Shown: positions 426-63,880 of the stretch, piece by piece | Layout: each line of letters starts with the position of its first letter | Numbering within the stretch: the first letter of the stretch is position 1 | DNA from: Candidatus Poribacteria bacterium | GTDB lineage: Bacteria; Poribacteria; WGA-4E; WGA-3G | Reading direction: 5' to 3' | Length of the DNA stretch: 64,000 nt | Assembly: GCA_963665235.2 (NCBI GenBank) | Contig: CAXXLX010000001.1 | Coordinates: forward strand, 800,001-864,000 | Made by a program: the position numbers and the translations under genes | The notes under the pieces: generated by a model | What the model saw: the letters and a program-made list of their open reading frames with translations, nothing else | Databases searched by the model: none | What the model was told of the DNA's origin: nothing

Positions 426-733
426 TACCATTTTTATTAATTATTCTATCATTACCGGTTGTTAGAAATGAAACGGAGAACGGAAGACCCAAACTAAAAG
501 TTTATGCTACAAGAAAGTGCACAAACTGGAAGTTTATGCTACAAGAAAGTGCACAAACTGGAAGTTTATGCTACAAGAAAGTGCACAAACTGGAAGTTTA
601 GGCTACAAGAAAGTGCACAAACTGGAAGTTTATGCTACAAGAAAGTGCACAAACTGGAAGTTTATGCTACAAGAAAGTGCACAAACTGGAAGTTTATGCT
701 ACAAGAAAGAGACATTTTCAATTAGAAATGGTA
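426..733 (+). mobile_element. REP-array MITE family 1, copy A (7 units of 32 nt)
   Basis: TAA|TACCATTTTTATTAATT...GAGACATTTTCAATTAGAAATGGTA|TAA, with internal tandem GCACAAACTGGAAGTTTATGCTACAAGAAAGT. Confidence 0.9.
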
Positions 734-737
734 TAAC

Positions 738-1175
738 TTGACAGATTTTAGCGGAGGATATAGAATTGTGAAAACGAAACTTTTAACAACGAACGTCAAT
801 ATAGCCGCCGTGGCTGCATTTGGAGGTTTCATCGTAAGTTTGTTCTGTGCGCTCTTTTTTGCGCAGCACGGGCTCCGCCTCAGTGTCGTCGCCTTTGCTA
901 TTTCGTTATGGGGGTTTCTGTCCCTAAAACATCAGGACACTCCGCAACCGAAAAGGCACCGCTGGCGCAAAAGAGGCTTCACCACGGCACTGATTGTTTT
1001 GATGGGTGGGTGCCTACTGTTTGGCACAATCAAACGGATTGCTGCGACACAGACAGATGCTCCCGCTTGTATAGAATGGACATGTAACAAGGAGCTCCCG
1101 GAAAAATCGCCGTGTCCATCTGTCAAATGCCCCCTATCGCAGCACCGCAGCGATATAAGGGATAGTCGAAAATAA
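738..1175 (+). CDS. Hypothetical membrane protein (likely start GTG 768)
   Basis: Three hydrophobic segments and a Cys-containing tail; GGAGGA upstream of GTG768; directly precedes the next gene. Confidence 0.55.
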   Translation: MTDFSGGYRIVKTKLLTTNVNIAAVAAFGGFIVSLFCALFFAQHGLRLSVVAFAISLWGFLSLKHQDTPQPKRHRWRKRGFTTALIVLMGGCLLFGTIKRIAATQTDAPACIEWTCNKELPEKSPCPSVKCPLSQHRSDIRDSRK

Positions 1176-1187
1176 GGAGGATTTACT

Positions 1188-2036
1188 ATGCGTAGAAAAA
1201 TGTATTGGGGAATAGCTGTCCTCATTGTTATCCTATTCACGGTTGGTGTTTTCCTGCTGACACAGCGTAACATCGACATGGAACCGGATGTTGTCTTTGA
1301 ACCGCCGTCACCGGAAGTTATCCAAAAGATTAAGGATGACATCGCTGAACGGAACGCACAAGAGGCTGCTAAACCGCCCCCGCCCGGTGCCTCCCCGAAT
1401 GGGCATTGGCACGATGGCGTATGGCATAATGAACCGCATGTGGTAGAAAAGCAGGATGCCCTTCCAACCGAACTGCCATCCAGCTTTCAGACTAAAATCG
1501 TATGGGTAAGCGACACAAGGGGGTATCTTCCCCATGCACCTCCCCTCAACGCAGAGCCTCAGACTGACGCAACACCCTTTTATAGACGCCTATATAAACG
1601 ATACGGAGTTGAACCACCACCCCCAGGCTATGCCTATGTCCGGTCAGACCCCAATGTCATAACGTTGGATAAAAACGGCAATCCTATCCTATACAAGCGG
1701 GGAGAAGCCCTATTCGAAATTACGAAAATAACCGGGTTCGCTCCGACTTACGAACAATACCAGCAGTACCAACAGTTGCGTGCTAGAAGAGATGCTGCAA
1801 GAAATCGCGGTGATAAAGCGGAAGCAGAACGTCTGATAGCCGAAATCGCCAAATTCAAGGCAGATGCACGAGGTTCCATACCTTTCATCTCATCTTCGTT
1901 AGCTACTGAAACGCATCTCTATGAAGCTGCCCGGACAAAAGCCAGTGAGAGAGCCACCAAAGTAATGCAGCAAGCATACATAGAGATGGGGTTGGGATAC
2001 ATGGTTGAGAATAATCAAATCCCAGACATGTTTTAA
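1188..2036 (+). CDS. Membrane-anchored hypothetical protein with PPPPG-x-GHWHxGxWH motif
   Basis: AAGGAGG RBS, N-terminal TM helix, His/Trp motif. Confidence 0.8.
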   Translation: MRRKMYWGIAVLIVILFTVGVFLLTQRNIDMEPDVVFEPPSPEVIQKIKDDIAERNAQEAAKPPPPGASPNGHWHDGVWHNEPHVVEKQDALPTELPSSFQTKIVWVSDTRGYLPHAPPLNAEPQTDATPFYRRLYKRYGVEPPPPGYAYVRSDPNVITLDKNGNPILYKRGEALFEITKITGFAPTYEQYQQYQQLRARRDAARNRGDKAEAERLIAEIAKFKADARGSIPFISSSLATETHLYEAARTKASERATKVMQQAYIEMGLGYMVENNQIPDMF

Positions 2037-2059
2037 CTTTAGACTCAAAAAAGGAGTTC

Positions 2060-3655
2060 ATGATGAAAACATTAAGATTTGTTCCAATAATCTTCCTTGT
2101 GTTCACACTTGCGTTTATACTCGTGTGGAACCAAGTTGACTCAAACACAAAGCATCCACATATTAGCAGTACAACGATAGTTTTTAAGCCGGGTAGCGAG
2201 AGTATGTCAAGTACCCCAGGCAAGGTGACAAAGACTATATCTTGTGGGATGAGCAGGCCGCATCGTGTTCGTCCTTCTTGTAGTTCCTCAGAGCCTGAAA
2301 CAGATACCGGGAATCATCCTATTTCAGAAACGTGGAATCCTTCCAATCGAAAGGTAGAGATTATCGCTCAAGCCAGTGGATATGGATATGGCGAAGCAAA
2401 GCCTTCTGTCATCACGGGGAAGGCGACTTTGTCAAACGGTACAGATGTCCCTATCTACAATTTTGGTGGCAGTGTTCGAAAGATTGGAACCTGGACAATG
2501 ACAGGGAACCACGCAGATGTAACTCCTATAGAATGGAGTGTTGATCATGCTGCATACTTCTTTTCTCCGGAGGATGCCCCGCCGGGAACACATAATTGGA
2601 CAGGTTCTGGAAAGATAGAGATATGGGGTGTTGACTGGGAAGGCACCGGCACAATATGGATTAGCCAATCCGTAGGTGTAAATTATGGACTAGACCCATC
2701 AATGACCTACTCCGTTGAACAAGGTGAATCTAGCAGCATTAGTGACGATATCTCGGGAAATGCTAGTGATCGCCTTTTAAACGATAAAACAGGAACGTGG
2801 ACAGTTGCCCACGAGAACAAGTGTAGTATCTGTAGCAACATAATCAATGATGCCCATGAACACCACTTTATCTGTAAGGGAGAAAACTGCGGTTTGCATA
2901 TTCCATGTTCTGTTAAACCTGACGGCCACAAACTCTGTGAAGGGTGTAATAAGCGTGAGTGCGAGGCAGGATATGATAACCTTACCCATAAAAAAGCCTC
3001 ATGCACTTACGACTACGCCAACCAACTTGGAGGTTGCGGCAATGATTATTGGGAATGTGCAAGCGATGCAAATAGCCACAAGACCGCTACACATACCGGG
3101 GTGTGTAATCAAAAATACAGGCCTTGTAAACCAGGTAATCATACGCAAACTACTTGCGGAGCAACAAGTCAAGGCAGCGGACAAGGCACCGCCTGTACCA
3201 ATACCCCTTATTGGAATTGTCTACCGCATACTCATCAATTCGGCAGTGGTAGCGGTAGCGGTAGTGGGCAGCAAGGCAGTGGTGGAAATACTTGTTCAAC
3301 CTGCGCGACTATTAGTGGTACTTGCAGTGAGTGCACCGATGCCCTTGAAGCGGGCAATGGCAACGGCAACGGTGGCGGAAATGGCGGCACACCTGTTGGC
3401 AACGGTGGATGCGATACCAGCTGTATCAATCCGAACTGCAATTCATCAACCCCGCATACTACCTATATCTGTGTCAGACCGGTAAAAACTACCTACAATT
3501 CTGCAAATCAGACATGGGGTTCACGCCCCTGCGGGGTAGTTTTCACGAAATGCCAGGATGAGCACACCTCCAGAGGTGGTGTGCTGCTCCGTGGCCTCTG
3601 TTCAGATCCGCTTGGGAATGGTGAGGATGTCTACCACAGTGTTTTTTCATATTAA
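2060..3655 (+). CDS. Secreted/anchored Cys-His-rich protein with Gly-rich linkers
   Basis: AAGGAG RBS, N-terminal hydrophobic helix, many CxxC/H motifs in the C-terminal half. Confidence 0.8.
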   Translation: MMKTLRFVPIIFLVFTLAFILVWNQVDSNTKHPHISSTTIVFKPGSESMSSTPGKVTKTISCGMSRPHRVRPSCSSSEPETDTGNHPISETWNPSNRKVEIIAQASGYGYGEAKPSVITGKATLSNGTDVPIYNFGGSVRKIGTWTMTGNHADVTPIEWSVDHAAYFFSPEDAPPGTHNWTGSGKIEIWGVDWEGTGTIWISQSVGVNYGLDPSMTYSVEQGESSSISDDISGNASDRLLNDKTGTWTVAHENKCSICSNIINDAHEHHFICKGENCGLHIPCSVKPDGHKLCEGCNKRECEAGYDNLTHKKASCTYDYANQLGGCGNDYWECASDANSHKTATHTGVCNQKYRPCKPGNHTQTTCGATSQGSGQGTACTNTPYWNCLPHTHQFGSGSGSGSGQQGSGGNTCSTCATISGTCSECTDALEAGNGNGNGGGNGGTPVGNGGCDTSCINPNCNSSTPHTTYICVRPVKTTYNSANQTWGSRPCGVVFTKCQDEHTSRGGVLLRGLCSDPLGNGEDVYHSVFSY

Positions 3656-3679
3656 CTTCTTATACTCATCACAACAGCT

Positions 3680-3718
3680 GAGGGAACTGGGGATGCCCCC
3701 GGTTCCCCCCGCTTTTTA
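3680..3718 (+). terminator. Possible intrinsic terminator or intergenic hairpin
   Basis: GGGAACTGGGG-atgc-CCCCGGTTCCC stem followed by GCTTTTT. Confidence 0.45.
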
Positions 3719-3723
3719 GTCCA

Positions 3724-5715: not shown

Positions 5716-5754
5716 ATCTGGCAATGAGCTCATCCTTATCCGCCACCACACGTC

Positions 5755-7481: not shown

Positions 7482-8685
7482 AACGTGAGTTTGAAAATAA
7501 ATGTCCGTTTTCTCTATAAATATATCGTCCCTACGGGACTAGGGGTTGTCGCTTCTATAAATATAACGTCTGCTTCTATAAATATATCGTCCCTACGGGA
7601 CTAGGGGTTATGGAAACATCTACTTCTATAAAGATATCGTCCCTACGGGACTAGGGGTTGTTGAAACATCTGCTTCTATAAAGATATCGTCCCTACGGGA
7701 CTAGGGGTTATGGAAACATCTGCTTCTATAAATATATCGTCCCTACGGGACTAGGGGTTATGGAAACATCTGCTTCTATAAATATATCGTCCCTACGGGA
7801 CTAGGGGTTGTCGAAACATCTACTTCTATAAATATATCGTCCCTACGGGACTAGGGGTTGTCGAAACATCTGCTTCTATAAATATATCGTCCCTACGGGA
7901 CTAGGGGTTGTGGAAACATCTGCTTCTATAAATATATCGTCCCTACGGGACTAGGGGTTATGGAAACATCTGCTTCTATAAATATATCGTCCCTACGGGA
8001 CTAGGGGTTGTCGAAACATCTACTTCTATAAATATATCGTCCCTACGGGACTAGGGGTTGTGGAAACATCTACTTCTATAAATATATCGTCCCTACGGGA
8101 CTAGGGGTTATGGAAACATCTACTTCTATAAATATATCGTCCCTACGGGACTAGGGGTTATGGAAACATCTGCTTCTATAAATATATCGTCCCTACGGGA
8201 CTATGGGTTGTTGAAACATCTGCTTCTATAAATATATCGTCCCTACGGGACTAGGGGTTGTTGAAACATCTGCTTCTATAAATATATCGTCCCTACGGGA
8301 CTATGGGTTGTTGAAACATCTGCTTCTATAAATATATCGTCCCTACGGGACTAGGGGTTGTTGAAACATCTGCTTCTATAAATATATCGTCCCTACGGGA
8401 CTAGGGGTTGTCGAAACATCTGCTTCTATAAATATATCGTCCCTACGGGACTAGGGGTTGTCGAAACATCTGCTTCTATAAATATATCGTCCCTACGGGA
8501 CTAGGGGTTGTGGAAACATCTGCTTCTATAAATATATCGTTCCTACGGGACTAGGGGTTGTGGAAACATCTACTTCTATAAATATATCGTCCCTACGGCT
8601 TCTATAAATATATCGTCCCTACGGGACTAGGGGTTGTTGAAACATCTGCTTCTATAAATATATCGTCCCTACGGGACTAGGGGTA
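7482..8685 (+). repeat. Tandem array of about 24 50-nt REP-like units (CTTCTATAAATATATCGTCCCTACGGGACTAGGGGTT...), headed by a MITE family 2 end
   Basis: 50-nt periodicity; GTCCC-TAC-GGGAC hairpin; begins AACGTGAGTTTGAAAATAAATGTCCGTTTT. Confidence 0.92.
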
Positions 8686-8715
8686 TCGGGGCAACATGTT
8701 TAATGTGAACGCCAG

Positions 8716-9118
8716 ACAAGCTAGCCCCAGCGGGGCGGTATCTTTATAGAAAACACAACAACACAACACAAGCTAGCCCTAGCGGGGCGGTATCTTTATA
8801 GAAAACACAACAACACAACACAAGCTAGCCCCAGCGGGGCGGTATCTTTATAGAAAACACAACAACACAACACAAGCTAGCCCCAGCGGGGCGGTATCTT
8901 TATAGAAGCGCGGGTGCCAGACAAGCTAGCCCCAGCGGGGCGGTATCTTTATAGAAAACACAACAACACAACACAAGCTAGCCCCAGCGGGGCGGTATCT
9001 TTATAGAAGCGCGGGTGCCAGACAAGCTAGCCCCAGCGGGGCGGTATCTTTATAGAAAACACAACAACACAACACAAGCTAGCCCCAGCGGGGCGGTATC
9101 TTTATAGAAAACACAACA
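8716..9118 (-). repeat. Tandem array of 8 units (about 50-52 nt), CAAGCTAGCCCCAGCGGGGCGGTATCTTTATAGAA
   Basis: Its reverse complement is homologous to the 50-nt unit, with an altered hairpin. Confidence 0.9.
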
Positions 9119-11325: not shown

Positions 11326-12807
11326 TTAAGTCGCCTGACAATGTCTTTCTGCCGACTTGGCTGCCGTTTCTGGTAAATTGACATACATTAAATATCCAAT
11401 TGCTCCGAAGACCTTCTGCAACTCGCCTATCGATAGCGGTGTCCTATTCCGCGTAAATAGAGCCTCCGCTAACTTACCGAATTGCCACATCTCCCCATCT
11501 GTTACAATCCCGTAAACGGGCATCAGGTCGTCCCCGTTAATCCGCTGAATTGCAACCAGTTCCGCCAAACACTGTCCCCAACCCTCAATAAAGTCGTTTC
11601 GTTTCGCCTCAACGACAACGATGATTGGGGTGCCAAGTACGGTTTTTCCTAACGCCGATTTTGTTGAAATAAGATAATCGGGCGGACCGCTCAGCTGCGA
11701 ATCGTAGGCAATAGGTTTATGGCTCCACAGCGAAAAGCTATCGGCATATTTTTTGTAAACATCCCGGAGAATCGGATAGATAATACCATTTTTATTAATT
11801 ATTCTATCATTACCGGTTGTTAGAAATGAAACGGAGAACGGAAGACCCAAACTAAAAGTTTATGCTACTAGAAAGCACAAACTGGAAGTTTATGCTACTA
11901 GAAAGCACAAACTGGAAGTTTATGCTACAAGACCGCACAAACTGGAAGTTTATGCTACAAGACCGCACAAACTGGAAGTTTATGCTACAAGACCGCACAA
12001 ACTGGAAGTTTATGCTACAAGACCGCACAAACTGGAAGTTTATGCTACAAGACCGCACAAACTGGAAGTTTATGCTACAAGACCGCACAAACTGGAAGTT
12101 TATGCTACAAGACCGCACAAACTGGAAGTTTATGCTACAAGACCGCACAAACTGGAAGTTTATGCTACAAGACCGCACAAACTGGAAGTTTATGCTACAA
12201 GACCGCACAAACTGGAAGTTTATGCTACAATAAAGTGCACAAACTGGAAGTTTATGCTACAAGACCGCACAAACTGGAAGTTTATGCTACAAGACCGCAC
12301 AAACTGGAAGTTTATGCTACAAGACCGCACAAACTGGAAGTTTATGCTACAAGAAAGTGCACAAACTGGAAGTTTATGCTACAAGACCGCACAAACTGGA
12401 AGTTTATGCTACAACAAAGCACAAACTGGAAGTTTATGCTACGCACAAACTGGAAGTTTATGCTACAAGAACGCACAAACTGGAAGTTTATGCTACAAGA
12501 TGCTACGCACAAACTGGAAGTTTATGCTACAAGAGGCACAAACTGGAAGTTTATGCTACAAGAAAGCACAAACTGGAAGTTTATGCTACTACAAAGAGAC
12601 ATTTTCAATTAGGAATGGTATAACATTCTCACAACGCGCTGTCTCCGATGCAAACACGTCAATATGTTGTTGATTAAACGCAAACTCTTCCAAAAACGCC
12701 GGGGAGGGTTCAATATTGGCATCGTACTGGAGGTAGTCCTCCTCGATATATTTAATATCAAAGGTTTCCTGAACTTGCGCGATTGATTTGAAGTTTGTAA
12801 ATGCCAT
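11326..12807 (-). pseudogene. PD-(D/E)XK-like (HsdR_N-like) gene split by MITE family 1 copy B
   Basis: Removing 11784-12620 plus one TAA restores ...ARCENVIYPILRDV...; homologous to the genes at 60607-62525 (VEAK...GWGQCLAEL). Confidence 0.85.
11784..12620 (+). mobile_element. REP-array MITE family 1, copy B (about 25 units, mostly 30 nt)
   Basis: TAA target duplication on both sides; dominant linker AAGACC. Confidence 0.92.
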
Positions 12808-12870
12808 CTATTCTGCCTCCTTAGATTATGCAAAAAGTATAGCATGAATTTGTGGGAATATCAACAAAAA

Positions 12871-14007: not shown

Positions 14008-14022
14008 TTTTCCTTAGAAGAG

Positions 14023-14236
14023 TCGCGAGCCCAGCTCGCTCCTACAGAAGAGACAGCCTGTCGCGAGCCCAGCTCGCTCCTACAGAAGAGACAGCCTGTC
14101 GCGAGCCCAGCTCGCTCCTACAGAAGAGACAGCCTGTCGCGAGCCCAGCTCGCTCCTACAGAAGAGACAGCCTGTCGCGAGCCCAGCTCGCTCCTACAGA
14201 AGAGACAGCCTGTCGCGAGCCCAGCTCGCTCCTACA
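14023..14236 (-). repeat. Tandem array of 6 GTAG-REP units (38 nt)
   Basis: TCGCGAGCCCAGCTCGCTCCTAC repeated; same REP as flanks the RAYT gene. Confidence 0.9.
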
Positions 14237-14312
14237 TAAGAGATAAGAGGTTTGTTGAAATTTTGTCTGTGGTATGTTAAAATTTTAAAAAGATAATCAA
14301 ACGGAGGCAAAT

Positions 14313-15036: not shown

Positions 15037-15040
15037 ATAT

Positions 15041-16697: not shown

Positions 16698-16984
16698 TAT
16701 CCTTCTCCTTAAAAAAACCTAAGTTGCCACATAGTAGCATAATCTTCCAGATTGTGCGTAATAGTAGCATAATCTTCCAGATTGTGCGTAATAGTAGCAT
16801 AATCTTCCAGATTGTGCGTAATAGTAGCATAATCTTCCAGATTGTGCGTAATAGTAGCATAATCTTCCAGATTGTGCGTAATAGTAGCATAATCTTCCAG
16901 ATTGTGCGTAATAGTAGCATAATCTTCCAGATTGTGCATATTTGTGTGCAAACTAAAAGTGGACGCTACAAATAGTGCCTAATT

Positions 16985-17134
16985 AACGCGAGTTTGAAAA
17001 AAGTTTTGACTTAGAGCGTTCTGTGTTAGTTTTAGCAAAAAACTGCACAAACTAGGAAGTATGTGCTACAATGCTGCTGCTTTTTTCGCGGTGAAAAGGT
17101 TTAGAGCAAACGGATATTTATTCAAGCTCACGTC
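16985..17134 (+). mobile_element. MITE family 2 (single-REP cargo)
   Basis: AACGCGAGTTTGAAAAAAG...TCAAGCTCACGT(C). Confidence 0.8.
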
Positions 17135-17586
17135 AATTATCAGCATATTTTCATTAAAGACGGTGTTTCCGGGTCTAAAAACTTATTAAAAAAAAACCTA
17201 AGTTGCCACATAGTAGCATAATCTTCCAGATTGTGCGTAATAGTAGCATAATCTTCCAGATTGTGCCCATAGTAGCATAATCTTCCAGATTGTGCCCATA
17301 GTAGCATAATCTTCCAGTATCAAACGGATATTTATTATCAAGCTCACGTCAATTATCAGCATATTTTCATTAAAGACGGTGTTTCCGGGTCTAAAAACTT
17401 ATTAAAAAAAAACCTAAGTTGCCACATAGTAGCATAATCTTCCAGATTGTGCCCATAGTAGCATAATCTTCCAGATTGTGCCCATAGTAGCATAATCTTC
17501 CAGATTGTGCCCATAGTAGCATAATCTTCCAGATTGTGCATATTTGTGTGCAAACTAAAAGTGGACGCTACAAATAGTGCCTAATT

Positions 17587-17739
17587 AACGCGAGTTTGAA
17601 AAAAGTTTTGACTTAGAGCGTTCTGTGTTAGTTTTAGCAAAAAACTGCACAAACTAGGAAGTATGTGCTACAATTATTCCGCTTTTTTGGCGGTGAAAAA
17701 GGTTTAGAGCAAACGGATATTTATTATCAAGCTCACGTT
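17587..17739 (+). mobile_element. MITE family 2 (single-REP cargo); supplies the stop codon of the J-domain gene
   Basis: Same ends as the other copies; TGA at 17733-17735 on the minus strand lies inside the TIR. Confidence 0.82.
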
Positions 17740-19152: not shown

Positions 19153-19712
19153 TACCATTTTTATTAATTATTCTATCATTACCGGTTGTTAGAAATGAAA
19201 CGGAGAACGGAAGACCCAAACTAAAAGTTTATGCTACAATAAAGTGCACAAACTGGAAGTTTATGCTACAATAAAGTGCACAAACTGGAAGTTTATGCTA
19301 CAATAAAGTGCACAAACTGGAAGTTTATGCTACAATAAAGTGCACTGGAAGTTTATGCTACGAAGAAGTGCACAAACTGGAAGTTTATGCTACAATAAAG
19401 TGCACAAACTGGAAGTTTATGCTACGAAGAAGTGCACAAACTGGAAGTTTATGCTACAATAAAGTGCACAAACTGGAAGTTTATGCTACGAAGAAGTGCA
19501 CAAACTGGAAGTTTATGCTACGAAGAAGTGCACAAACTGGAAGTTTATGCTACAATAAAGTGCACAAACTGGAAGTTTATGCTACGAAGAAGTGCACAAA
19601 CTGGAAGTTTATGCTACGAAGAAGTGCACAAACTGGAAGTTTATGCTACAATAAAGTGCACAAACTGGAAGTTTATGCTACAAGAAAGAGACATTTTCAA
19701 TTAGAAATGGTA
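19153..19712 (+). mobile_element. REP-array MITE family 1, copy C (about 15 units of 32 nt), inserted between RBS and ATG
   Basis: AAGGATAAC-TAA|element|TAA-G-ATG(19717). Confidence 0.92.
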
Positions 19713-28187: not shown

Positions 28188-28485
28188 TACCATTTTTATT
28201 AATTATTCTATCATTACCGGTTGTTAGAAATGAAACGGAGAACGGAAGACCCAAACTGGAAGTTTATGCTACAAGAACGCACAAACTGGAAGTTTATGCT
28301 ACAAGAAAGCACAAACTGGAAGTTTATGCTACAAGAACGCACAAACTGGAAGTTTATGCTACAAGAAAGCACAAACTGGAAGTTTATGCTACAAGAAAGC
28401 GCACAAACTAAAAGTTTATGCTACAAGAACGCACAAACTGGAAGTTTATGCTACAAGAAAGAGACATTTTCAATTAGAAATGGTA
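28188..28485 (+). mobile_element. REP-array MITE family 1, copy D (7 units)
   Basis: TAA|TACCATTT...AAATGGTA|TAA. Confidence 0.9.
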
Positions 28486-28790: not shown

Positions 28791-29320
28791 TAGAAGGATG
28801 ATAATTTAAGGATACCATGAAAACGGGTTATAGTAAAGCAATTATTGAAGTCGCGAGCCCAGCTCGCTCCTACAGAAGATTGTGTAGCTAAAAAGGGTTT
28901 GTTATACGCAATCGTGTCGCGAGCCCAGCTCGCTCCTACAGAAGAGGGGTAACGGAAAAAATGCTAAACCTCCAATCACAAAACTTTCTAGAAGGGCGAT
29001 AATTTAAGGATACCATGAAAACGGGTTATAGTAAAGCAATTATTGAAGTCGCGAGCCCAGCTCGCTCCTACAGAAGAGGGGTAATGCGGAAAAAACGCTA
29101 AACCTCCAATCACAAAACTTTCTAGAAGGGCGATAATTTAAGGATACCATGAAAACGGGTTATAGTAAAGCAATTATTGAAGTCGCGAGCCCAGCTCGCT
29201 CCTACAGAAGATTGTGTAGCTAAAAAGGGTTTGTTATACGCAATCGTGTCGCGAGCCCAGCTCGCTCCTACAGAAGAGGGGTAATGCGGAAAAAACGCTA
29301 AACCTCCAATCACAAAACTT
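28791..29320 (+). repeat. Triplicated block (about 135-197 nt) containing 5 GTAG-REP copies
   Basis: TAGAAGG.GATAATTTAAGGATACCATGAAAACGGG recurs at about 28791, 28988 and 29123. Confidence 0.85.
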
Positions 29321-29457: not shown

Positions 29458-31515
29458 ATGGGAAAGCAACAACCTGATGGTACCACTCTTATCAAAACCG
29501 ATTCCTTACTGAAACCTTACGCCGCCCAATTGCGAAAGCGATTCGCGCACTATCAACGGCTCAGAACGCAGATTGAAAAGACCGGGGGCATACTCGGCGA
29601 AATAACCCAGGGACACCGATATTTCGGGTTCAACCGTGGCGAAAGTGAAGGCATACCTGGGGTCTGGTATCGAGAATGGGCACCGGGCGCGCACGCGCTC
29701 TCCCTCATCGGTGACTTTAACGACTGGGCACGCGACGCACATCCACTGTCTGTTGACCGGTGGGGGGTGTGGCATCTATTCCTCCCGGACAACGTGTATG
29801 CCAATAAACTGACACACGGAAGTCTTGTAAAGGTTCATGTCGTATCAGAACTCGGGGGTCTCGACCGAATTCCGGCCTATATTCAACGCGTTGTACAGCG
29901 CGAAAACCTCGATTTTAGCGGACAGTACTGGGCACCCCCGCAGCCATATCGTTGGCAGCATGCCCCACCCGATTTCAACTGCAATACCGAAGGATTAAGG
30001 ATTTACGAGGCACACATCGGTATGGCACAAGAATCAGAAAAGATCGGAACGTTCGCTGAGTTTACGCAAAACGTTTTACCCCGAATTGCTAACCTAGGCT
30101 ATAACGCCGTGCAACTGATGGCTATTATGGAACACCCCTATTATGGTAGTTTCGGGTACCACGTGAGCAATTTTTTCGCTGTTTCAAGCCGTTTCGGAAC
30201 ACCTGAAGAACTCAAAGCACTTATAGATACAGCGCACGGAATGGGTTTGTTGGTTATCATGGATATCGTGCATAGTCACGCGGTTAAAAACCTCAATGAA
30301 GGTTTGAACCGTTTCGACGGGACGGCACATCACTATTTCCACGCGGGGGCAAAAGGGGAACATGTCGCTTGGGATTCGCTCTGTTTCGATTATAGCAAAT
30401 ACGAAGTCCAGCGGTTTCTGCTCAGCAATATTCGCTACTGGTTGGAGACCTACCGGTTTGATGGGTTCAGATTTGACGGTGTCACGAGTATGCTTTACAG
30501 TGACCACGGGCTGGAGCGAAAGTTCACAGGCTACGCCGATTACTTCGACGCTCGAGTTGAAACAGACGCTATCGCCTACCTGATGTTGGCAAATGAGGTG
30601 GTGCATGCTACTAACCCGCACGCGATTTCTATTGCTGAGGACATGAGCGGAATGCCCGGACTTGCACGTCCTATTGAAGAGGGGGGGCTCGGTTTCGATT
30701 ACCGCCTCGCAATGGGCATCCCGGATTATTGGATCCGGTTGTTAAAGGAGAAAAAGGACGAAGCGTGGCACCTCGGTGACATTTACGGCATGTTGCACAA
30801 CAGACGCATCGGCGAAAAACATATCGCTTACGTCGAAAGTCATGACCAAAGTATTGTCGGCGATAAAACCCTAGCAATGCAGCTGATGGACGCGGAGCTC
30901 TATACAAAAATGAGCATCTTCACCCCAAGCCTCAGAATTGCGCGAGGGGTTGCGTTACACAAATTGATTCGCCTGCTCACGTTTAGTCTAGGCGGTGAGG
31001 GGTATCTCAATTTCATGGGAAATGAATTCGGACACCCCGAATGGATCGATTTCCCCCGGGCAGGCAACAACTATTCGTCCTGGTACGCACGTAGGCAGTG
31101 GCATCTTGTAGACGATGAGACGCTCTATTACAGGCACTTAAACAATTTTGATAAGGCAATGCAACGATTGGACGTAGTGTACCAGCTGCTCACCGATGAA
31201 AACATTCAGTTGTTATCTATTCACGAAGATGCGAAACAGATAGTCTATACGCGAGCTGGTCTTGTCTTCGCCTTTAACCTTCATCCGACAGCATCTGTGA
31301 CAGATTGGCGTATTCCTGTACCGCAACGGACAGATTACCGTCTCATTCTCAACACAGATGATACCGATTTTGGTGGGTACGGCGCTGTAACGGGGGTTCA
31401 TTATCCCTGGCAAGCGATAGAGATGGAAGACGTAGGGCAATCGATTCAGCTCTATGTACCTGCCCGGAGTGCCCAGGTTTTAGGACCGCGTTTGTTCAAC
31501 ACACCTCCTATGTAG
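29458..31515 (+). CDS. glgB: 1,4-alpha-glucan branching enzyme (GH13_8 type)
   Basis: YREWAPGA, IYEAHIGM, FDGFRFDGVTSM, AEDMSG and YVESHDQ. Confidence 0.92.
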   Translation: MGKQQPDGTTLIKTDSLLKPYAAQLRKRFAHYQRLRTQIEKTGGILGEITQGHRYFGFNRGESEGIPGVWYREWAPGAHALSLIGDFNDWARDAHPLSVDRWGVWHLFLPDNVYANKLTHGSLVKVHVVSELGGLDRIPAYIQRVVQRENLDFSGQYWAPPQPYRWQHAPPDFNCNTEGLRIYEAHIGMAQESEKIGTFAEFTQNVLPRIANLGYNAVQLMAIMEHPYYGSFGYHVSNFFAVSSRFGTPEELKALIDTAHGMGLLVIMDIVHSHAVKNLNEGLNRFDGTAHHYFHAGAKGEHVAWDSLCFDYSKYEVQRFLLSNIRYWLETYRFDGFRFDGVTSMLYSDHGLERKFTGYADYFDARVETDAIAYLMLANEVVHATNPHAISIAEDMSGMPGLARPIEEGGLGFDYRLAMGIPDYWIRLLKEKKDEAWHLGDIYGMLHNRRIGEKHIAYVESHDQSIVGDKTLAMQLMDAELYTKMSIFTPSLRIARGVALHKLIRLLTFSLGGEGYLNFMGNEFGHPEWIDFPRAGNNYSSWYARRQWHLVDDETLYYRHLNNFDKAMQRLDVVYQLLTDENIQLLSIHEDAKQIVYTRAGLVFAFNLHPTASVTDWRIPVPQRTDYRLILNTDDTDFGGYGAVTGVHYPWQAIEMEDVGQSIQLYVPARSAQVLGPRLFNTPPM

Positions 31516-31702
31516 GAGCGTGCTGTGCACGCGATTTTTGTTTTTTCTCCTATGTAGGAGCGTGCTGTGCACGCGATACATTATATTTTTCTCTGTAGGA
31601 GCGTGCTGTGCACGCGATACATTATATTTTTCTCTGTAGGAGCGTGCTGTGCACGCGATACATTATATTTTTCTCTGTAGGAGCGTGCTGTGCACGCGAT
31701 AC
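31511..31702 (+). repeat. 5 GTAG-REP copies downstream of RAYT
   Basis: GTAGGAGCGTGCTGTGCACGCGA at about 42-nt spacing. Confidence 0.92.
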
Positions 31703-31714
31703 CCACACGCTCCC

Positions 31715-32188
31715 TCATTCCATCTCGAATTTACACCGCCAAAACGGATAATCCTTCGCAGCCTTTACCAATCCTGACCGCACCGGATTCTCATAACAAT
31801 ATCGGATAATGCTATTCAATGATTCATCCTGCCGAATACCGTGGTCATAATAAGCACGTTGCCAAAGCGGACCCCTACGTCCCAAGCAAGCGTTAATCTG
31901 TTTCGCTGTATAGCTTTTGAAGGATTGTATAAGTCTCGACAATGTTTGTTTGCTGCCAAGTTGGATAACGGCGTGAATATGATCCGGCATCACAATGATA
32001 CAAAACCATCTGAGTCGCTCGTTCGTTTCGAGCCAGTCAAAGGCTTGAAAGATGATGTCTGCGATTTCGGGGGTGGCAAGCAGCGGTTTTTTGTTAAGTG
32101 TGGTTATTGTGAGGGAATAATAGGTGCCGGGTATTGAGTGTCTGCCTTTGCGGAGTTGTCGGTGTCCTCGGGTAGGCGATTTTTTCAT
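31715..32188 (-). CDS. REP-associated tyrosine transposase (RAYT, Y1 HUH)
   Basis: LRKGR, VMPDHIH (HUH), WQRAYYDHGIR and YCYENPV motifs; flanked by inverted REP arrays. Confidence 0.92.
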   Translation of the reverse strand: MKKSPTRGHRQLRKGRHSIPGTYYSLTITTLNKKPLLATPEIADIIFQAFDWLETNERLRWFCIIVMPDHIHAVIQLGSKQTLSRLIQSFKSYTAKQINACLGRRGPLWQRAYYDHGIRQDESLNSIIRYCYENPVRSGLVKAAKDYPFWRCKFEME

Positions 32189-32205
32189 TTCATATTCCTA
32201 TAATG

Positions 32206-33080
32206 TGTCGCGTGCACAGCACGCTCCTACAGAAGAGATTATCGCGTGCGGTGCACGTTCCTACAGAAGAGGGTGTCGCGTGCACAGCACGCTCCTACAG
32301 AAGAGGGTGTCGCGAGCCCAGCTCGCTCCTACAGAAGAGGGTGTCGCGTGCACAGCACACTCCTACAGAAGAGGTGTCGCGAGCCCAGCACACTCCTACA
32401 GAAGAGGGTGTCGCGTGCACAGCACGCTCCTACAGAAGAGGGTGTCGCGTGCACAGCTCGCTCCTACAGAAGAGGTGTCGCGAGCCCAGCTCGCTCCTAC
32501 AGAAGAGGGTGTCGCGTGCACAGCACGCTCCTACAGAAGAGGGTGTCGCGAGCCCAGCTCGCTCCTACAGAAGAGGGTGTCGCGTGCACAGCACGCTCCT
32601 ACAGAAGAGGTGTCGCGTGCACAGCACGCTCCTACAGAAGAGGGTGTCGCGTGCACAGCACACTCCTACAGAAGAGGGTGTCGCGAGCCCAGCACGCTCC
32701 TACAGAAGAGGGTGTCGCGTGCACAGCACGCTCCTACAGAAGAGGTGTCGCGTGCACAGCACGCTCCTACAGAAGAGGGTGTCGCGTGCACAGCACGCTC
32801 CTACAGAAGAGGGTGTCGCGTGCACAGCACGCTCCTACAGAAGAGGGTGTCGCGTGCACAGCACACTCCTACAGAAGAGGGTGTCGCGTGCACAGCACGC
32901 TCCTACAGAAGAGGTGTCGCGTGCACAGCTCGCTCCTACAGAAGAGGTGTCGCGAGCCCAGCTCGCTCCTACAGAAGAGGTGTCGCGTGCCCAGCACGCT
33001 CCTACAGAAGAGGGTGTCGCGTGCACAGCACACTCCTACAGAAGAGGGTGTCGCGTGCACAGCACGCTCCTACAGAAGAG
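32206..33080 (-). repeat. Array of about 27 GTAG-REP units (30-32 nt) upstream of RAYT
   Basis: TCGCG(T/A)GC(A/C)CAGC(A/T)CGCTCCTACAGAAGAGG(G)TG repeated. Confidence 0.93.
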
Positions 33081-33097
33081 GGGCGCAGGATGTGTTA

Positions 33098-44865: not shown

Positions 44866-45972
44866 TTACCACTTCAACAAACCGGCATCGTTTTTATTAC
44901 TGAGTTTGCCGCTACGCACGACAGAGGTGAGAAATTCAATGATATCCAAAGCCCGTTTCAGGATTGCACTGAATGCTTGTTGCTGCCCCAGGCTATCAAC
45001 CCCGAAGTAATTAGCGATTTTTTGATAGTCGCTACCTTTTCGATGCCCACTACCCCTGGAGCGCAGCGTCTGAAGTTTTTGTAGGAAAGAGACTCGGCGA
45101 TCGGCATCTTCGACTGCATGGAAATCAAGGATTTCCCCAAGAATTTCAATGCTCCGTTTACCTTTCAGATTAACCCTCTCTGCTTCAGGCAAAAGTTGCT
45201 TTAACCCCTTTACATTTATTGATTCGATTAATATGGTTTGGAGATCCTGAACTAAATCATCAAAATGACACTGCTCATCATTAACCGGAATTCTCAGGCG
45301 TTGGAAACGGTACTCGTCACCAGAACCCAACGGTTTTAACAATTGCCAACCAAGGCATTCTTTGCATGCCTCTTGCAACTGTTCATAATTTTGTTTGAAC
45401 AAAATATCCGGCTGATCTGAACTTATACCATTTTTATTAATTATCCTATCATTACCGGTCGTTAGAAATGAAACGGAGAACGGAAGACACAAACTGGAAG
45501 TTTATGCTACAAGGAGGCACAAACTGGAAGTTTATGCTACAAGGAGGCACAAACTGGAAGTTTATGCTACAAGGAGGCACAAACTGGAAGTTTATGCTAC
45601 AAGGAGGCACAAACTGGAAGTTTATGCTACAAGAACGCACAAACTGGAAGTTTATGCTACAAGGAGGCACAAACTGGAAGTTTATGCTACAATAAAGAGA
45701 CATTTCCAATTAGAAATGGTATTACCCACTTTCCTTCGACCATCCGATCATGATAGGTTTCGCTCATATCCCCTTCTGGTGGAATATTATGAGCGCGCCA
45801 ATGTAATTGTTCCGTGTAAGGCAGATGTATCTAGGAAGTGTATCCTAGCGTTCTGCCAAGATAGTCTAAGAACACACAAACTTTGTCAGGGTGATGGTTG
45901 TCGATTTTGATGCTGCCCCACAGATTACAACTCACGATTGAATCCCTAACCGTGTATTTGCTAGGTTCGTTA
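44866..45972 (-). pseudogene. Hypothetical gene disrupted by two MITE family 1 copies
   Basis: Removing copy E restores ...MVEGKWVSSDQPDILFK...; an upstream in-frame TAG and the 5' truncation by copy F remain. Confidence 0.75.
45426..45721 (+). mobile_element. REP-array MITE family 1, copy E (7 units, linker AAGGAG), TSD TTA
   Basis: TTA|TACCATTT...AAATGGTA|TTA. Confidence 0.92.
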
Positions 45973-46205
45973 TTAATTATTCTATCATTACCGGTTGTTA
46001 GAAATCAAACGGAGAACGGAAGACACAAACTGGAAGTTTATGCTACAATAAAGTGCACAAACTGGAAGTTTATGCTACAATAAAGTGCACAAACTGGAAG
46101 TTTATGCTACAATAAAGTGCCCAAACTGGAAGTTTATGCTACAAGAAAGTGCACAAACTGGAAGTTTATGCTACAAGAAAGAGACATTTCCAATTAGAAA
46201 TGGTA
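45970..46205 (+). mobile_element. REP-array MITE family 1, copy F (left TIR missing; 5 units)
   Basis: Starts at TTATTAATTATTCTATC; right end intact. Confidence 0.85.
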
Positions 46206-52969: not shown

Positions 52970-53853
52970 AACGTGAGCTTGATAATAAATATCCGTTTTC
53001 ACTAACCTCTATAAAGATATCGTCCTTGAGGAGCGGGCTGCTTGCCCGAATACTGGGACTAATACCATTTTTATTAATTATTCTATCATTACCGGTTGTT
53101 AGAAATCAAACGGAGAACGGAAGACACAAACTGGAAGTTTATGCTACAATAAAGTGCAAACTGGATGAAGATTAAGAAATTAATTCAAACTGGAAGTTTA
53201 TGCTACAATAAAGTGCCCAAACTGGAAGTTTATGCTACAATAAAGTGCCCAAACTGGAAGTTTATGCTACAATAAAGTACTGCACAAACTGGAAGTTTAT
53301 GCTACAATAAAGTGCCCAAACTGGAAGTTTATGCTACAATAAAGTGCACAAACTGGAAGTTTATGCTACAATAAAGTGCACAAACTGGAAGTTTATGCTA
53401 CAATAAAGTGCACAAACTGGAACTGGAAGTTTATGCAAGAAGAGGGCATTCAAGGAGTTTCATAGACCGGGCCGTGGCCGCAAACCCGCGTTCGCCCCCA
53501 AATCCCCCGAAGAAGCAGAAACCGACAAACTGGAAGTTTAGACCCATCAAAACCCACAGAACACGGCTGTGCTTTATCAAGATGAGTTCTCATTTTACCG
53601 AAACCCCACTATAGCAAAAACTGCACAAACTGGAAGTTTATGCTACAATAAAGAGACATTTTCAATTAGAAATGGTATAAGAATTGGGGCGGAAACGGCT
53701 TCTATAAAGATATCGTCCTTGAGGAGCGGGCTGCTTGCCCGAATACTGGGACTAAGAATTGGGACGTGAACGTCTTTTTCTATAAACATATCGTCCCTAA
53801 GGAGCGAGCTGTTTGCCCGAATACCAGGGCAAAACTTTTTCCAAACTCACGTT
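52970..53853 (-). mobile_element. MITE family 2 shell with long-hairpin cargo, containing nested family 1 copy G
   Basis: AACGTGAGCTTGA...CCAAACTCACGTT ends; 3 cargo units; the nested insertion has a TAA duplication. Confidence 0.8.
53063..53677 (+). mobile_element. REP-array MITE family 1, copy G, with IS630-like transposase fragments
   Basis: TAA TSD; inserts translate to QEEGIQG/HRPGRGRKPAFAP and AVLYQDEFSFYRNPTIA. Confidence 0.85.
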
Positions 53854-58380: not shown

Positions 58381-58976
58381 TACCATTTTTATTAATTATC
58401 CTATCATTACCGGTCGTTAGAAATGAAACGGAGAACGGAAGACACAAACTGGAAGTTTATGCTACAAGACCGCACAAACTGGAAGTTTATGCTACAAGAC
58501 CGCACAAACTGGAAGTTTATGCTACAAGACCGCACAAACTGGAAGTTTATGCTACAACAAACTGGAAGTTTATGCTACAAGACCGCACAAACTGGAAGTT
58601 TATGCTACAAGACCGCACAAACTGGAAGTTTATGCTACAAGACCGCCCAAACTGGAAGTTTATGCTACCGCACAAACTGGAAGTTTATGCTACAAGACCG
58701 CACAAACTGGAAGTTTATGCTACAAGATGCTACAAGGAGGCACAAACTGGAAGTTTATGCTACAAGAGGCACAAACTGGAAGTTTATGCTACAAGGAGGC
58801 ACAAACTACAAGACCGCACAAACTGGAAGTTTATGCTACAAGACCGCACAAACTGGAAGTTTATGCTACAAGACCGCACAAACTGGAAGTTTATGCTACA
58901 AGGCACAAACTGGAAGTTTATGCACAAACTGGAAGTTTATGCTACAATAAAGAGACATTTCCAATTAGAAATGGTA
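58381..58976 (+). mobile_element. REP-array MITE family 1, copy H (about 17 units)
   Basis: TAA|TACCATTT...AAATGGTA|TAA. Confidence 0.9.
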
Positions 58977-59382: not shown

Positions 59383-59408
59383 AATTGCTAATCGCTAATC
59401 GCTAATTG

Positions 59409-61215: not shown

Positions 61216-61264
61216 GGTAGTAGGCACACACCGACGTGCCTTTCACTACGGAGGGACTAAACAG

Positions 61265-61870
61265 ATGGCGTATAGCAATTTTACTTTAGACACGGTAGAG
61301 GAAACATTCCAACTTAAAAGGAATGAAACCGCAGGGGTCTTTGCTGGCATTGAACCGGTGGAGCCGAGTGTAGAGCTCACAAAGGATTTGGTAAAAAAGG
61401 TGCCGTTAGCTATCGCTATCGGAACAGAGAAGGCTCGGTCGGAACTGATTGTTGCCGGCCTTCTTGTTGAACTTCGGGAGCACTTTAAGCGGCGCATCAG
61501 TTTTTTTTCGGGCATCGACCTCAATGTCGATGCCGAAAACGGGTTAACAGGTGTCTGTGATTTTTTAGTTAGCCTCTCACCTAATCAGTTTAGTCTGAAA
61601 GCCCCGGTTATCATCATTGTTGAGGCGAAAAATGCTGACCCGAAAAATGGCTTAGGGCAGTGTGTCGCGGAGATGCTCGCCGCCCAACGTTTTAACGCAG
61701 AAAGAGGCAATGACATTCAACGCGTTTACGGCACTACAACCACTGGCACCGAATGGCTTTTCCTCAAATTAGAGGGCCAAAAACTCCATATTGATATGAT
61801 GGGGTATCAGATTACGCAGTGCGACAAAATCCTCGGTATCCTTTCAAGCATGGTCGAACAAAAGGCATAG
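61265..61870 (+). CDS. PD-(D/E)XK-like protein, tandem copy 2
   Basis: GVCDFL...VEAK...GLGQCVAEM. Confidence 0.82.
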   Translation: MAYSNFTLDTVEETFQLKRNETAGVFAGIEPVEPSVELTKDLVKKVPLAIAIGTEKARSELIVAGLLVELREHFKRRISFFSGIDLNVDAENGLTGVCDFLVSLSPNQFSLKAPVIIIVEAKNADPKNGLGQCVAEMLAAQRFNAERGNDIQRVYGTTTTGTEWLFLKLEGQKLHIDMMGYQITQCDKILGILSSMVEQKA

Positions 61871-61919
61871 GGGAGGAGGCACACACCGGCGTGCCGTTCA
61901 CTACGGAGGGACTAAACAG

Positions 61920-62525
61920 ATGGCGTATAGCAATTTTACCTTAGACACGGTAGAAGAAACATTCCAACTTGAAAAGACTGAAACCGCGGGGGTCTTTGCT
62001 GGCATTGAATTGGTGGAGCCGAGCGAGGCACTTACAAAGGAGTTGCAAAAAAGGGTGCCGTTAGCTGTCGCTATCGGAACAGAAAAAGCGCGGTCGGAAC
62101 TGATTATTGTCAACGTTCTCGTTGAACTCCGGGAACAGTTTGAGCGGCGCATCAGTTTTTTTTCGGGCATCGACCTTAATGTCGATGCCGAAAACGGACT
62201 AACAGGCGTATGTGACTTTTTAGTCAGCCTCTCACCGGACCTTCTATATTTGAAGACACCTGTCATCATCATTGTTGAGGCGAAGAACGCTGACCCGAAA
62301 AATGGGTTAGGGCAGTGTGTCGCAGAGATGCTCGCCGCACAACGTTTTAACGCAGAAAGAGGCAATGACATTCAGCGCGTTTACGGAACTACGACCACTG
62401 GCACGGAGTGGCTTTTCCTCAAATTAGAGGGACAAAAACTCCACATCGATATCAATAGTTATCATATTAGTCAATGTAGCACAATCCTCGGTATCCTTTC
62501 AAGCATGGTCGAACAAAAGGCATAG
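61920..62525 (+). CDS. PD-(D/E)XK-like protein, tandem copy 3
   Basis: Same motifs as copy 2. Confidence 0.82.
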   Translation: MAYSNFTLDTVEETFQLEKTETAGVFAGIELVEPSEALTKELQKRVPLAVAIGTEKARSELIIVNVLVELREQFERRISFFSGIDLNVDAENGLTGVCDFLVSLSPDLLYLKTPVIIIVEAKNADPKNGLGQCVAEMLAAQRFNAERGNDIQRVYGTTTTGTEWLFLKLEGQKLHIDINSYHISQCSTILGILSSMVEQKA

Positions 62526-62617
62526 GAAGGAAAAAATGAAAGATTCGGGATGTGTTCACACGAAAGAATAACACCTAACACGGAATGCTGGCGTTACGAG
62601 AAAGGCAGGTATTTATT

Positions 62618-63325
62618 ATGGGCAATTTTTGTCACGACAAAGGCTGTGAACTTGAAGGGCTCCGCGAACGGCAATCCAAAACACTATGGATTGTGCTTGG
62701 TATTAACGGAGCCATGTTCTGCTTGGAATTGATTATTGGTTTCCTTGCAGGTTCAGTGGCGTTACAAGCCGATTCGCTTGATATGCTGAGCGATACTTTG
62801 GTTTACGGTTTCAGTCTCTATGCAATTGGTAAAAGTAGTCGCTGGCGTGCAGGTTCAGCTATGCTTAAAGGGAGTATTATGGCAATCTTTGGCATCGGCG
62901 TGTTGTTCCAGAGCGGTTATAAGTTCATCGCGGGCGGTACGCCAGAGTCAAATCTCATGTTTTTTATGGGTGCGCTCGCCTTGGTTGCCAACGCGACTTG
63001 TCTGCTTCTTTTAGCGAGACACAAAACAGATGATTTAAATATGCACTCAACGTGGGTGTGTTCTCGCAATGATATTATCGCGAACACAAGCGTACTTTTA
63101 GCAGCAGGCCTCGTTGCTTTTACGCAATCCAAGCTGCCGGACTTAGTAGTGGGTTTACTCATCACAATTATCTTTCTCAAGTCCGCGAGTGCTATTCTGA
63201 GAGCATCGTATAGAGAATTGCGTCAGCCCATCTCACACCCTTCTGAGCCCACTATTCCAAAATTTTTATCCATGTCAGAGCTGTGTGCAGCAGGGACCTG
63301 TCCAGCGAATGCCTGTCACTGTTAA
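62618..63325 (+). CDS. Cation diffusion facilitator (CzcD-like) transporter
   Basis: SVALQADSLDMLSD, NMHSTWVCSRND and PDL motifs; Cys/His tail. Confidence 0.85.
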   Translation: MGNFCHDKGCELEGLRERQSKTLWIVLGINGAMFCLELIIGFLAGSVALQADSLDMLSDTLVYGFSLYAIGKSSRWRAGSAMLKGSIMAIFGIGVLFQSGYKFIAGGTPESNLMFFMGALALVANATCLLLLARHKTDDLNMHSTWVCSRNDIIANTSVLLAAGLVAFTQSKLPDLVVGLLITIIFLKSASAILRASYRELRQPISHPSEPTIPKFLSMSELCAAGTCPANACHC

Positions 63326-63339
63326 GGTTTATGAGATAA

Positions 63340-63880
63340 TACCATTTTTATTAATTATTCTATCATTACCGGTTGTAGAAATAGAAATGGAAACGGAGAA
63401 CGGAAGACCCAAACTGGAAGTTTATGCTACGAAGAAGTGAACTGGAAGTTTTTATGCGAAGAAGTGCCAAACTGGAAGTTTATGCTACGAAGAAGTGCAC
63501 AAACTGGAAGTGCTACCAAACTGGAAGTTTATGCTACAAGAACGATGCCCAAACTGGAAGTTTATGCTACGAAGAACAAACTGGAAGTTTATGCTACGAA
63601 GAAGTGCACAAACTGGAAGTTTATGCTACAAGAACAAACTGGAAGTTTATGCTACGAAGAAGTGCACAAACTGGAAGTTTATGCTACGAAGAAGTGCCCA
63701 AACTGGAAGTTTATGCTACGAAGAAGTGCACAAACTGGAAGTTTATGCTACGAAGAAGTGCCCAAACTGGAAGTTTATGCTACGAAGAAGTGCCCAAACT
63801 GGAAGTTTATGCTACCAAACTGGAAGTTTATGCTACGAAGAAGTGCACAAACTGGAAGTTTATGCTACGATAAAGCACAC
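63340..63880 (+). mobile_element. REP-array MITE family 1, copy I (irregular units, right end missing)
   Basis: TAA|TACCATTT leader; GAAGAAGT-linked units with many indels. Confidence 0.75.

Follow-up and report, generated by a model that had tools for sequence, protein, structure and literature searches.

REP hairpin arrays within a miniature transposon family of Candidatus Poribacteria

A 64,000-nucleotide stretch of a Candidatus Poribacteria genome (bases 800001–864000 of contig 1, hereafter the window) contains nine copies of a short repeated element in which the inverted ends of a MITE (miniature inverted-repeat transposable element) enclose a head-to-tail array of repetitive extragenic palindromic (REP) hairpins. 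We consider it probable that these copies belong to a MITE family which duplicates a 3-bp TWA target, which has at its core a REP that in relatives borders a gene resembling those of REP-associated tyrosine transposases (RAYTs), and whose arrays have grown in place without this RAYT-like gene. The host genome (G000) is a metagenome-assembled genome of an uncultured organism with 5.31 Mb in 4 contigs and 47.6% G+C; Poribacteria are uncultured symbionts of sponges. A cyanobacterial origin was rejected, as the HIP1 motif is nearly absent and every match with a name is to Poribacteria.

According to this reading the basic element would be a non-coding MITE of Candidatus Poribacteria of ∼112 bp, with inverted ends and with one GTAG-tagged REP hairpin between a leader and a trailer. 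It would insert at an AT-rich palindromic site of 9 bp and duplicate the central TWA, presumably through a DDE-type transposase which acts in trans with cuts staggered by 3 bp. In the host genome the single hairpin would have turned into a variable-number tandem array, with 1 to 26 units and a median of 5 in the 124 copies shorter than 1 kb, and these arrays would lengthen and shorten in place after insertion. The cause would be replication slippage or unequal recombination between units, perhaps aided by the hairpins and acting without the RAYT-like gene.

Architecture and target sites of the element

By direct reading the element consists of a 64-nt leader starting with TACCATTT, 1 to 26 hairpin units of 30–32 nt in head-to-tail order, and a 25-nt trailer ending with AAATGGTA. 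Each unit is composed of the hairpin, a CTAC tag and a spacer of 7–12 nt. The two ends are inverted repeats, as the leader and the reverse-complemented trailer are identical in the first 8 of 8 bases and in 11 of the first 13. The motif TACCATTT occurs 16 times in the window, where 2.46 occurrences are expected, and this number was reached in none of 100 shuffles. A first-pass annotation, made from the letters of the window, had described nine elements with a common leader of ∼60 nt, hairpin arrays in the interior, the leader end lost in one copy and a trailer in eight. All of this is borne out by direct reading, and Tandem Repeats Finder returned arrays of 30–32 nt at all nine places. Rfam at gathering thresholds gave no match in the window.

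Seven copies have both ends intact and, as had been claimed, TAA/TTA duplications, namely TAA on both sides in six and TTA in one. They are found at 426..733 (308 bp, 7 units), 11784..12620 (837 bp, ∼25 units), 19153..19712 (560 bp, 15 units), 28188..28485 (298 bp, 7 units), 45426..45721 (296 bp, 7 units, the copy with TTA flanks), 53063..53677 and 58381..58976 (596 bp, 16 units). The array of the copy at 53063..53677 contains debris of an IS630-like element, consisting of one end fragment and two pieces of the transposase gene. The remaining two copies are incomplete: the one at ∼45972..46205 has lost the first bases of its leader including TACCATTT and retains 5 units and an intact trailer, and the one at 63340..∼63880 has a leader with a small insertion and ∼14–15 units, some of them shortened, and is the only copy in which the trailer is absent. 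All nine are oriented alike, on the plus strand, and the bin from 800 to 1000 kb holds 10 plus copies versus 1 minus copy. Genome-wide there is no excess of orientation runs (z = −0.74) and no link between the orientation of the element and gene-strand bias; co-orientation with the nearest long frame amounts to 61 versus 41 copies (p = 0.059).

The family extends over the whole genome. BLAST searches with the leader and the trailer, which the first-pass annotation had proposed as a check, gave 170 and 154 matches, and there are 128 complete leader–trailer pairs shorter than 3 kb, among which no hairpin-free shell was found. Counting by pattern yields 292 ends and 1042 hairpins, which corresponds to ∼146 elements with ∼7 units each. 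The sizes of the copies increase in steps of one unit (112, 116, 144–151, 172–180, 206–213 and so on up to 967 bp). The element is short and non-coding: 124 of the 128 intact copies measure 112–967 bp, and the open frames within the arrays are translations of the repeat. Each of the four long copies (1380–2879 bp) holds a nested insertion sequence. Leaders and trailers diverge from their consensus by ∼1.8–1.9%, and 47 of the 128 leaders are identical to it. The cassette family is thus confirmed in the window as well as in the genome.

The 3 bp on either side are identical in 119 of the 128 copies (TTA 62, TAA 54, TAC 2, TGA 1), and eight of the nine mismatched pairs are TTA versus TAA. The middle base of the flank differs among copies, yet it agrees across the element in 116 of the 128. 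The target as reconstructed is symmetric, with A or T at positions −3 and −2, no T at −1, the central TWA, no A at +1, and A or T at +2 and +3. The claim that the element is mobile as one cassette is supported by its inverted ends together with the duplicated 3-bp TWA.

Two copies in the window have entered genes. The copy at 11784 breaks a minus-strand gene of ∼213 amino acids and the copy at 45426 a minus-strand gene whose orthologues have ∼535–600 amino acids. When the element and one copy of the flank are excised in silico, a frame of 213 amino acids opens across 11784 and one of 221 amino acids across 45426, both on the minus strand and both with the residues that the first-pass annotation had given for exact restoration. 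Orthologues of the downstream gene halves in relatives, with 83% (11784) and 79% (45426) identity, are uninterrupted and continue through the exact junction residues of both insertions. A second break in the gene at 45426 falls at residue 280, the point at which the leader-truncated copy (∼45972) starts, and the N-terminal part of the gene did not turn up in the 4.5 kb searched. The gene broken at 11784 (window 11326–12822, minus strand) is a member of a large paralogous family of ∼205–230 amino acids with 20 matches in the host genome and up to 51 in one relative; its C-terminal part gave no Pfam match.

It seems hardly credible to us that the arrays, or the lengths of the arrays, arose as assembly artefacts in a metagenome-assembled genome rich in repeats. 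Admittedly, the assembly consists of four contigs from an uncultured organism, and the public runs that contain the region offer short-read contigs which break at the element, so that no array is spanned and no junction properly bridged. Nevertheless, the 128 copies occupy distinct loci with clean flanks, differ in size by whole units and carry variants private to single arrays, and the element is present in many independent Poribacteria assemblies. The read depth inside the element is at least 100-fold above that of the flanks, as expected for a repeat. As a separate observation, contigs of three runs link ∼45421 to ∼45771 (window 45419–45772) with unknown letters between; this join could represent an empty or divergent allele in co-occurring strains and is not interpretable from the contigs alone.

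The hairpin as a REP and the growth of its arrays

Read on the minus strand, the unit has GTAG and after it a stem of 9 bp, which includes one G–T pair, and a loop of 3 nt. The GTAG strand folds with −5.5 kcal/mol as DNA (z = −2.75) and with −9.8 kcal/mol as RNA (z = −3.84), and the opposite strand folds less well. GTAG-type REPs are imperfect palindromes of 20–40 bp with an unpaired GTAG at one end, and the unit answers this description. It does not form the inverted REP doublets known as REPINs, as the units stand head-to-tail; a REP with a degenerate inverted copy occurs only in a second shell described below. Nor do the arrays resemble a CRISPR array with its unique spacers, as the segments between units have 7–12 nt and 62% of adjacent ones are identical. 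A loose pattern finds 1079 units in the genome, of which 977 have the stem AAACT/AGTTT (A-type), 100 the stem AATCT/AGATT (T-type) and two are hybrids. With only two hybrids among so many units, the stem types differ by change on both sides of the stem. A third stem variant, AGGCT/AGCCT, is seen in relatives.

The window itself encodes a short RAYT of 157 amino acids (31715–32188, minus strand), which with 136 bits on NCBIfam NF047646 (cut-off 80) is a member of this family. It is flanked (window 31511–33082) in inverted orientation by arrays of a different GTAG REP with 4.7 and 26 units, and free arrays at 14022–14243 and 28916–29211 consist of a variant of that REP.

Searching the relatives with this protein led through weak matches to a long RAYT-like protein of 228–250 amino acids in which HUH and Y motifs are present. 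Its NF047646 score of 66.9 bits falls under the cut-off for membership, and it has no match in Pfam at E up to 0.001. Of 40 relatives, 15 have the long RAYT-like gene (4 of 17 in genus g3 and 11 of 17 in genus g6). In 11 of 12 loci it is bordered by the element's GTAG hairpin or its stem variants. The unit beside the gene in relative G007 is identical to the AAAA-loop unit of the element, and in relative G023 the gene has arrays of both stem types to either side. Because the unit flanks this gene in so many loci, we regard it as a genuine GTAG-type REP. By this comparison the hairpin belongs to the REP family of a divergent RAYT-like tyrosine transposase of the relatives, and the element is a REP inside a transposon shell. 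The GTAG class named in the first-pass annotation is therefore supported both by the GTAG-tagged fold and by the genomic neighbourhood. For the RAYT flanked by this REP, which it had suggested to look for, the relatives have the RAYT-like gene, and this was not found in the host genome: a search with stop readthrough and a local tblastn with E up to 10 returned only the cross-match to the short RAYT of the window, and no Y1 gene lies within 1.5 kb of a unit.

In a comparison with 40 relatives, the element matched in 18 of 24 genomes from the host's family (9 of 9 in genus g3, 9 of 9 in genus g6) and in none of 16 genomes from three other families of its order. Among 17 genomes of genus g3, 13 are without the RAYT-like gene, and the element is abundant in these. 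In a scan of one genome per species at least 91 stretches were recovered, and 80 loci were listed, 74 of which are titled as metagenome-assembled genomes of Candidatus Poribacteria and 6 as 'uncultured bacterium'. Among these 80 loci there are 64 elements with identical 3-bp flanks (TAA 31, TTA 29, TGA 3 and a doubtful TCC 1), and 52 of the 64 have 108–114 bp with one hairpin. The majority of ends in G023 and G013 pair at 112 bp, and the multi-unit copies in relatives are one of 4 and one of 3 units. As the one-hairpin form of 112 bp prevails in the relatives, we conclude that the ancestral element was a 112-bp MITE with one hairpin. The host genome has the most units per element and the longest arrays among the Poribacteria compared, and it is the outlier with respect to array expansion. 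In genus g6 the hairpins are common and TACCATTT ends are few, for example 234 pattern matches versus 3 ends in G054, so that REP and shell are separable. In G023 (L067, 1596–1738) a different GTAG hairpin, with the stem GCGCAAT/ATTGCGC, is found in a shell that has TACCATTT-type ends and is flanked by TTA; the shell can hence carry more than one REP type.

How did the arrays become so long? Of 546 pairs of adjacent spacers, 337 (62%) are identical, versus 2.6% of random pairs. Mutations private to one array are repeated within it: 18 units share one change in one copy and 5 units in another, and in one array 10 units bear a mutated GTAG tag, with one normal unit after them. Private mutations and spacers shared within arrays indicate that growth is local. 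Tandem Repeats Finder also reports higher periods of 64, 83, 99 and 181 nt, corresponding to blocks of 2–6 units, so that multi-unit blocks have been duplicated. The AAAA-loop variant is commoner in the leader-proximal unit (25 of 124) than elsewhere (27 of 653). As it is the form beside the RAYT-like gene of G007, the first unit seems to be the ancestral one, growth having taken place further in. Three copies at separate loci carry one common internal insertion of ∼290 bp and differ in their number of units, which suggests that this number changes faster than, or along with, transposition. Taking local growth together with the absence of the RAYT-like gene, we suggest that the arrays most likely grew by slippage or unequal recombination rather than by a RAYT. 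The first-pass annotation had considered a possible expansion by a RAYT; for the host genome this is not supported, as the RAYT-like gene was not found where the elements have the most units and the variation is block-wise and private to arrays.

Several points weigh against the reading of growth in place. Long head-to-tail REP arrays directly adjoin RAYT genes in the host and in relatives, which fits arrays built by RAYTs, and the short RAYT of the window or IS200-type enzymes could act in trans on the arrays of the element. The RAYT-like gene may also have been lost from the host genome only recently. Moreover, slippage is deduced from sequence patterns, and the unit counts of long arrays are assembled values.

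The alternative to be considered is that an HUH/Y1 tyrosine transposase built the arrays, in that a RAYT cuts single-stranded DNA beside the GTAG and pastes a REP next to an existing one. The builder would be the short RAYT of the window, a TnpA of the IS200 type, or the long RAYT-like gene before its loss. This proposal draws on the arrays of 4.7 and 26 GTAG REP units directly beside the RAYT of the window, on relative G055 with 22 units adjoining its RAYT, on the arrays to either side of the long RAYT-like gene in G023, on 13 matches to the Y1 transposase family in the host genome, and on some shortened units that are joined straight after CTAC. We nevertheless consider it rather unlikely. 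The RAYT-like gene of this hairpin was not found in the host, although the arrays are longest there, and the RAYT of the window is flanked by a different REP. Ten units were amplified in one array with a mutated GTAG tag, and the higher periods consist of multi-unit blocks. Furthermore, no bias with respect to the replication strand is seen: judged by a weak GC skew with an uncertain origin, orientation is balanced on contig 1 (49 versus 52 copies, p = 0.84) and the number of units does not differ between the strands.

The transposon shell and its relation to known elements

Inverted ends together with a symmetric target and a 3-bp duplication are not what a conservative recombinase or a single-strand HUH enzyme would leave. 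We infer from this footprint that a DDE transposase has moved the shell. No autonomous element with TACCATTT ends was found in the host genome, in the 80 listed Poribacteria loci or among two types of insertion sequence of the relatives, so that this step is argued from the footprint. The hybrid element spread by a DDE transposase that the first-pass annotation had put forward is hence supported in its cassette footprint and its REP core, and the full-length insertion sequences with the same ends which it had asked for did not turn up.

In the host, each TACCATT end was paired with a facing end 600–4000 bp away with identical 3-bp flanks, which gave 20 pairs, all with a known leader or trailer, and no new insertion sequence. 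Family searches of the host genome for DDE_Tnp_4, DDE_Tnp_1_2 and rve returned 0 matches, and no transposase of the IS5 or Harbinger type was found there. The 8 matches to DDE_Tnp_1 belong to ISAs1-, IS701-, IS4- and IS982-like elements with other ends. In the relatives, elements with DDE_Tnp_4 and DDE_Tnp_1_2 make 3-bp duplications. The former have ends AGACATTATAATG with flanks ACT, AGT, ATT and ATT (4 of 5 read), the latter ends GAACTCATA with flanks TAT, ATT and TAT (3 of 4 read), and both were discarded as partners for the mismatch of their ends and of TWA; the output of an automatic inverted-repeat finder on these elements was mostly noise. The sole long pair among the 80 listed loci (3596 bp, TCC flanks) looks spurious, and the four long copies in the host are no parents of the family, as they contain an IS630-like element which is bounded by ends of its own and has entered a hairpin loop in one orientation or the other. 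The partner either has ends unlike these, or resides in genomes outside the scan, or is gone, in which case the host copies would be immobile despite their low divergence.

It has to be asked whether the shell is a transposon at all. It might instead be a palindromic target preferred by REPs, or the 112-bp unit might be moved by the RAYT-like enzyme itself. Transposition by single-strand HUH enzymes of the IS200/IS605 type is not known to leave a target duplication, and here the middle base of the flank varies among copies and matches across 116 of 128. In addition, shell and REP enter genes together, and the element is abundant in g3 genomes without the RAYT-like gene. We therefore judge this explanation as quite improbable, even though no hairpin-free shell occurs among the 128 intact copies and in G023 another GTAG hairpin is enclosed by a shell with these ends. 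A precedent for it would be the REP dimers of Anabaena variabilis, which lie in long palindromes that are reported never to occur empty (PMC3733652).

The T-type REP with its 100 copies is located outside the TACCATTT shell except for single trailer-side units in three related copies. It is contained in a second MITE family of 150 bp with the ends ACCYAAGTTGC and an apparent 7-bp duplication, of which there are ∼45 elements genome-wide, with copies in the window at 16700–17730. These elements hold 1–7 units of the sister REP GTAGCATAATCTTCCAGATTGTGC and then a degenerate inverted copy. The same ends and 7-bp flank also bound the single IS982-like element of the host (927 bp, DDE_Tnp_1_3 domain, contig 1, 2245171–2246097), from which the second shell appears to derive. 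Together with the different GTAG hairpin in the shell of G023, the T-type REP in this second shell indicates that REPs of the lineage recur inside transposon shells.

We tentatively suggest a more general scheme, in which REPs might have become free of their own tyrosine transposase by way of DDE-mobilised MITEs, at least twice (in the TACCATTT shell with 3-bp and in the IS982-derived shell with 7-bp duplications), followed by array growth that is driven by the hairpins and free of the RAYT. If true, such growth would account for the success of a REP family in a genome without the RAYT that it once had. REPs and MITEs are usually held to be separate classes with different enzymes; here one REP family is found in two unrelated shells, and it is most abundant and most expanded where the RAYT-like gene was not found. 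The family therefore offers a concrete system for two questions, how REPs persist and spread without a RAYT and what builds tandem REP arrays. In practical terms, ∼146 elements, some of them genic, and ∼1000 near-identical hairpins affect assembly, gene calling and strain typing in Poribacteria.

Tourist-type MITEs are short and non-coding and have inverted ends and a TWA-type duplication. The present element is like them in all these features, and differs in that no IS5- or Harbinger-type transposase was found in the host and those of the relatives have other ends and flanks. A 3-bp duplication is described for the Tourist-type MITEs of the PIF/Harbinger and IS5 superfamily (PMC2213677).

A close match in architecture is BrickBuilt of Porphyromonas gingivalis, a MITE in which 1 to 22.8 copies of a 23-nt unit lie between a leader and a tail (PMC4596501); the same species also has a MITE with 41-nt tandem repeats (PMC4596501). 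Both BrickBuilt and the present element have a leader and a tail with small inverted ends around a head-to-tail array of short units, ranging from 1 to ∼23 in BrickBuilt, and both are non-coding with a transposase in no copy, as far as the published text of the former describes it (PMC4596501). On the other hand, BrickBuilt has 19 copies, only intergenic ones, whereas the present element has 128 intact copies and some are genic. The text of that report does not use the word hairpin for the 23-nt unit, while ours is a GTAG REP hairpin, and the duplications are inconsistent (3 of 4 intact copies, of differing lengths), while ours are uniformly TWA; this comparison is one of descriptions (PMC4596501).

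GTAG REPs were defined by Di Nocera and colleagues, who also place GTAG-15 dimers in the never empty long palindromes of A. variabilis, and in Pseudomonas fluorescens SBW25 Bertels and Rainey report tandem REP arrays of up to 12 as well as clusters beside RAYT genes, for the formation of which they infer a second mechanism (PMC3733652; PMC3116915). With GTAG REPs as presented in these texts the unit shares the imperfect palindrome, the unpaired GTAG tag, the high copy number and, in the relatives, the position beside a RAYT-like gene. It differs from them as it is enclosed by a shell that has inverted ends and duplicates its target, as the units are arranged head-to-tail in arrays of up to 26 instead of inverted doublets, and as the RAYT-like gene was not found in the present genome (PMC3733652; PMC3116915). 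Given BrickBuilt and the GTAG REP dimers in palindromes, as the consulted reports depict them, the suggestion of an undescribed class of element goes too far (PMC4596501; PMC3733652). Rather, the element combines known features, with a REP that borders a RAYT-like gene in the relatives serving as the minisatellite unit of a MITE with clean duplication, in ∼146 copies and without that gene. A literature search with supplements excluded found no paper on REPs or MITEs in Poribacteria, and the text overlap of 'Poribacteria' with 'repetitive extragenic palindromic' consisted of an unrelated review.

Insertion sequences and other repeats in the neighbourhood

Some insertion sequences, for example IS1397 in enterobacteria, target REP hairpins. 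The IS630-like passenger of the host resembles IS1397 in this respect, since all 7 of its 7 full-length copies sit in the 3–4-nt loops of GTAG hairpins of three REP types. It is unlike IS1397 in belonging to another family (helix-turn-helix and DDE_3 domains), and the comparison concerns a passenger nested in arrays and not the cassette. The element has 1239 bp and the ends TGAAGATTAA, and its duplication looks like 1–2 bp instead of the usual TA. The full-length copies are located on contig 1 at 737492, 1687074, 1853471, 2925534 and 3591522, on contig 2 at 852877 and on contig 4 at 10440, and shorter derivatives with the same ends are often in hairpin loops too. In the window, the debris of one copy is interleaved with hairpin units at 53160–53620.

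Two further tandem arrays of hairpin-bearing units are found in the window at 7565–8598 (50 nt × 20.7) and 8716–9118 (52 nt × 7.9). A second IS630-type element, with two frames and a DDE_3 domain, inserts at CTAG within the 52-nt unit elsewhere in the genome. The host genome also has 21 copies of a frame of ∼387 amino acids with an RRXRR domain, which we take to be IscB-like, frames resembling TnpB by appearance only in 11 and 5 copies, and 7 putative elements of the IS607 type. Several of its 13 matches to the Y1 transposase family have an altered first histidine in the HUH motif.

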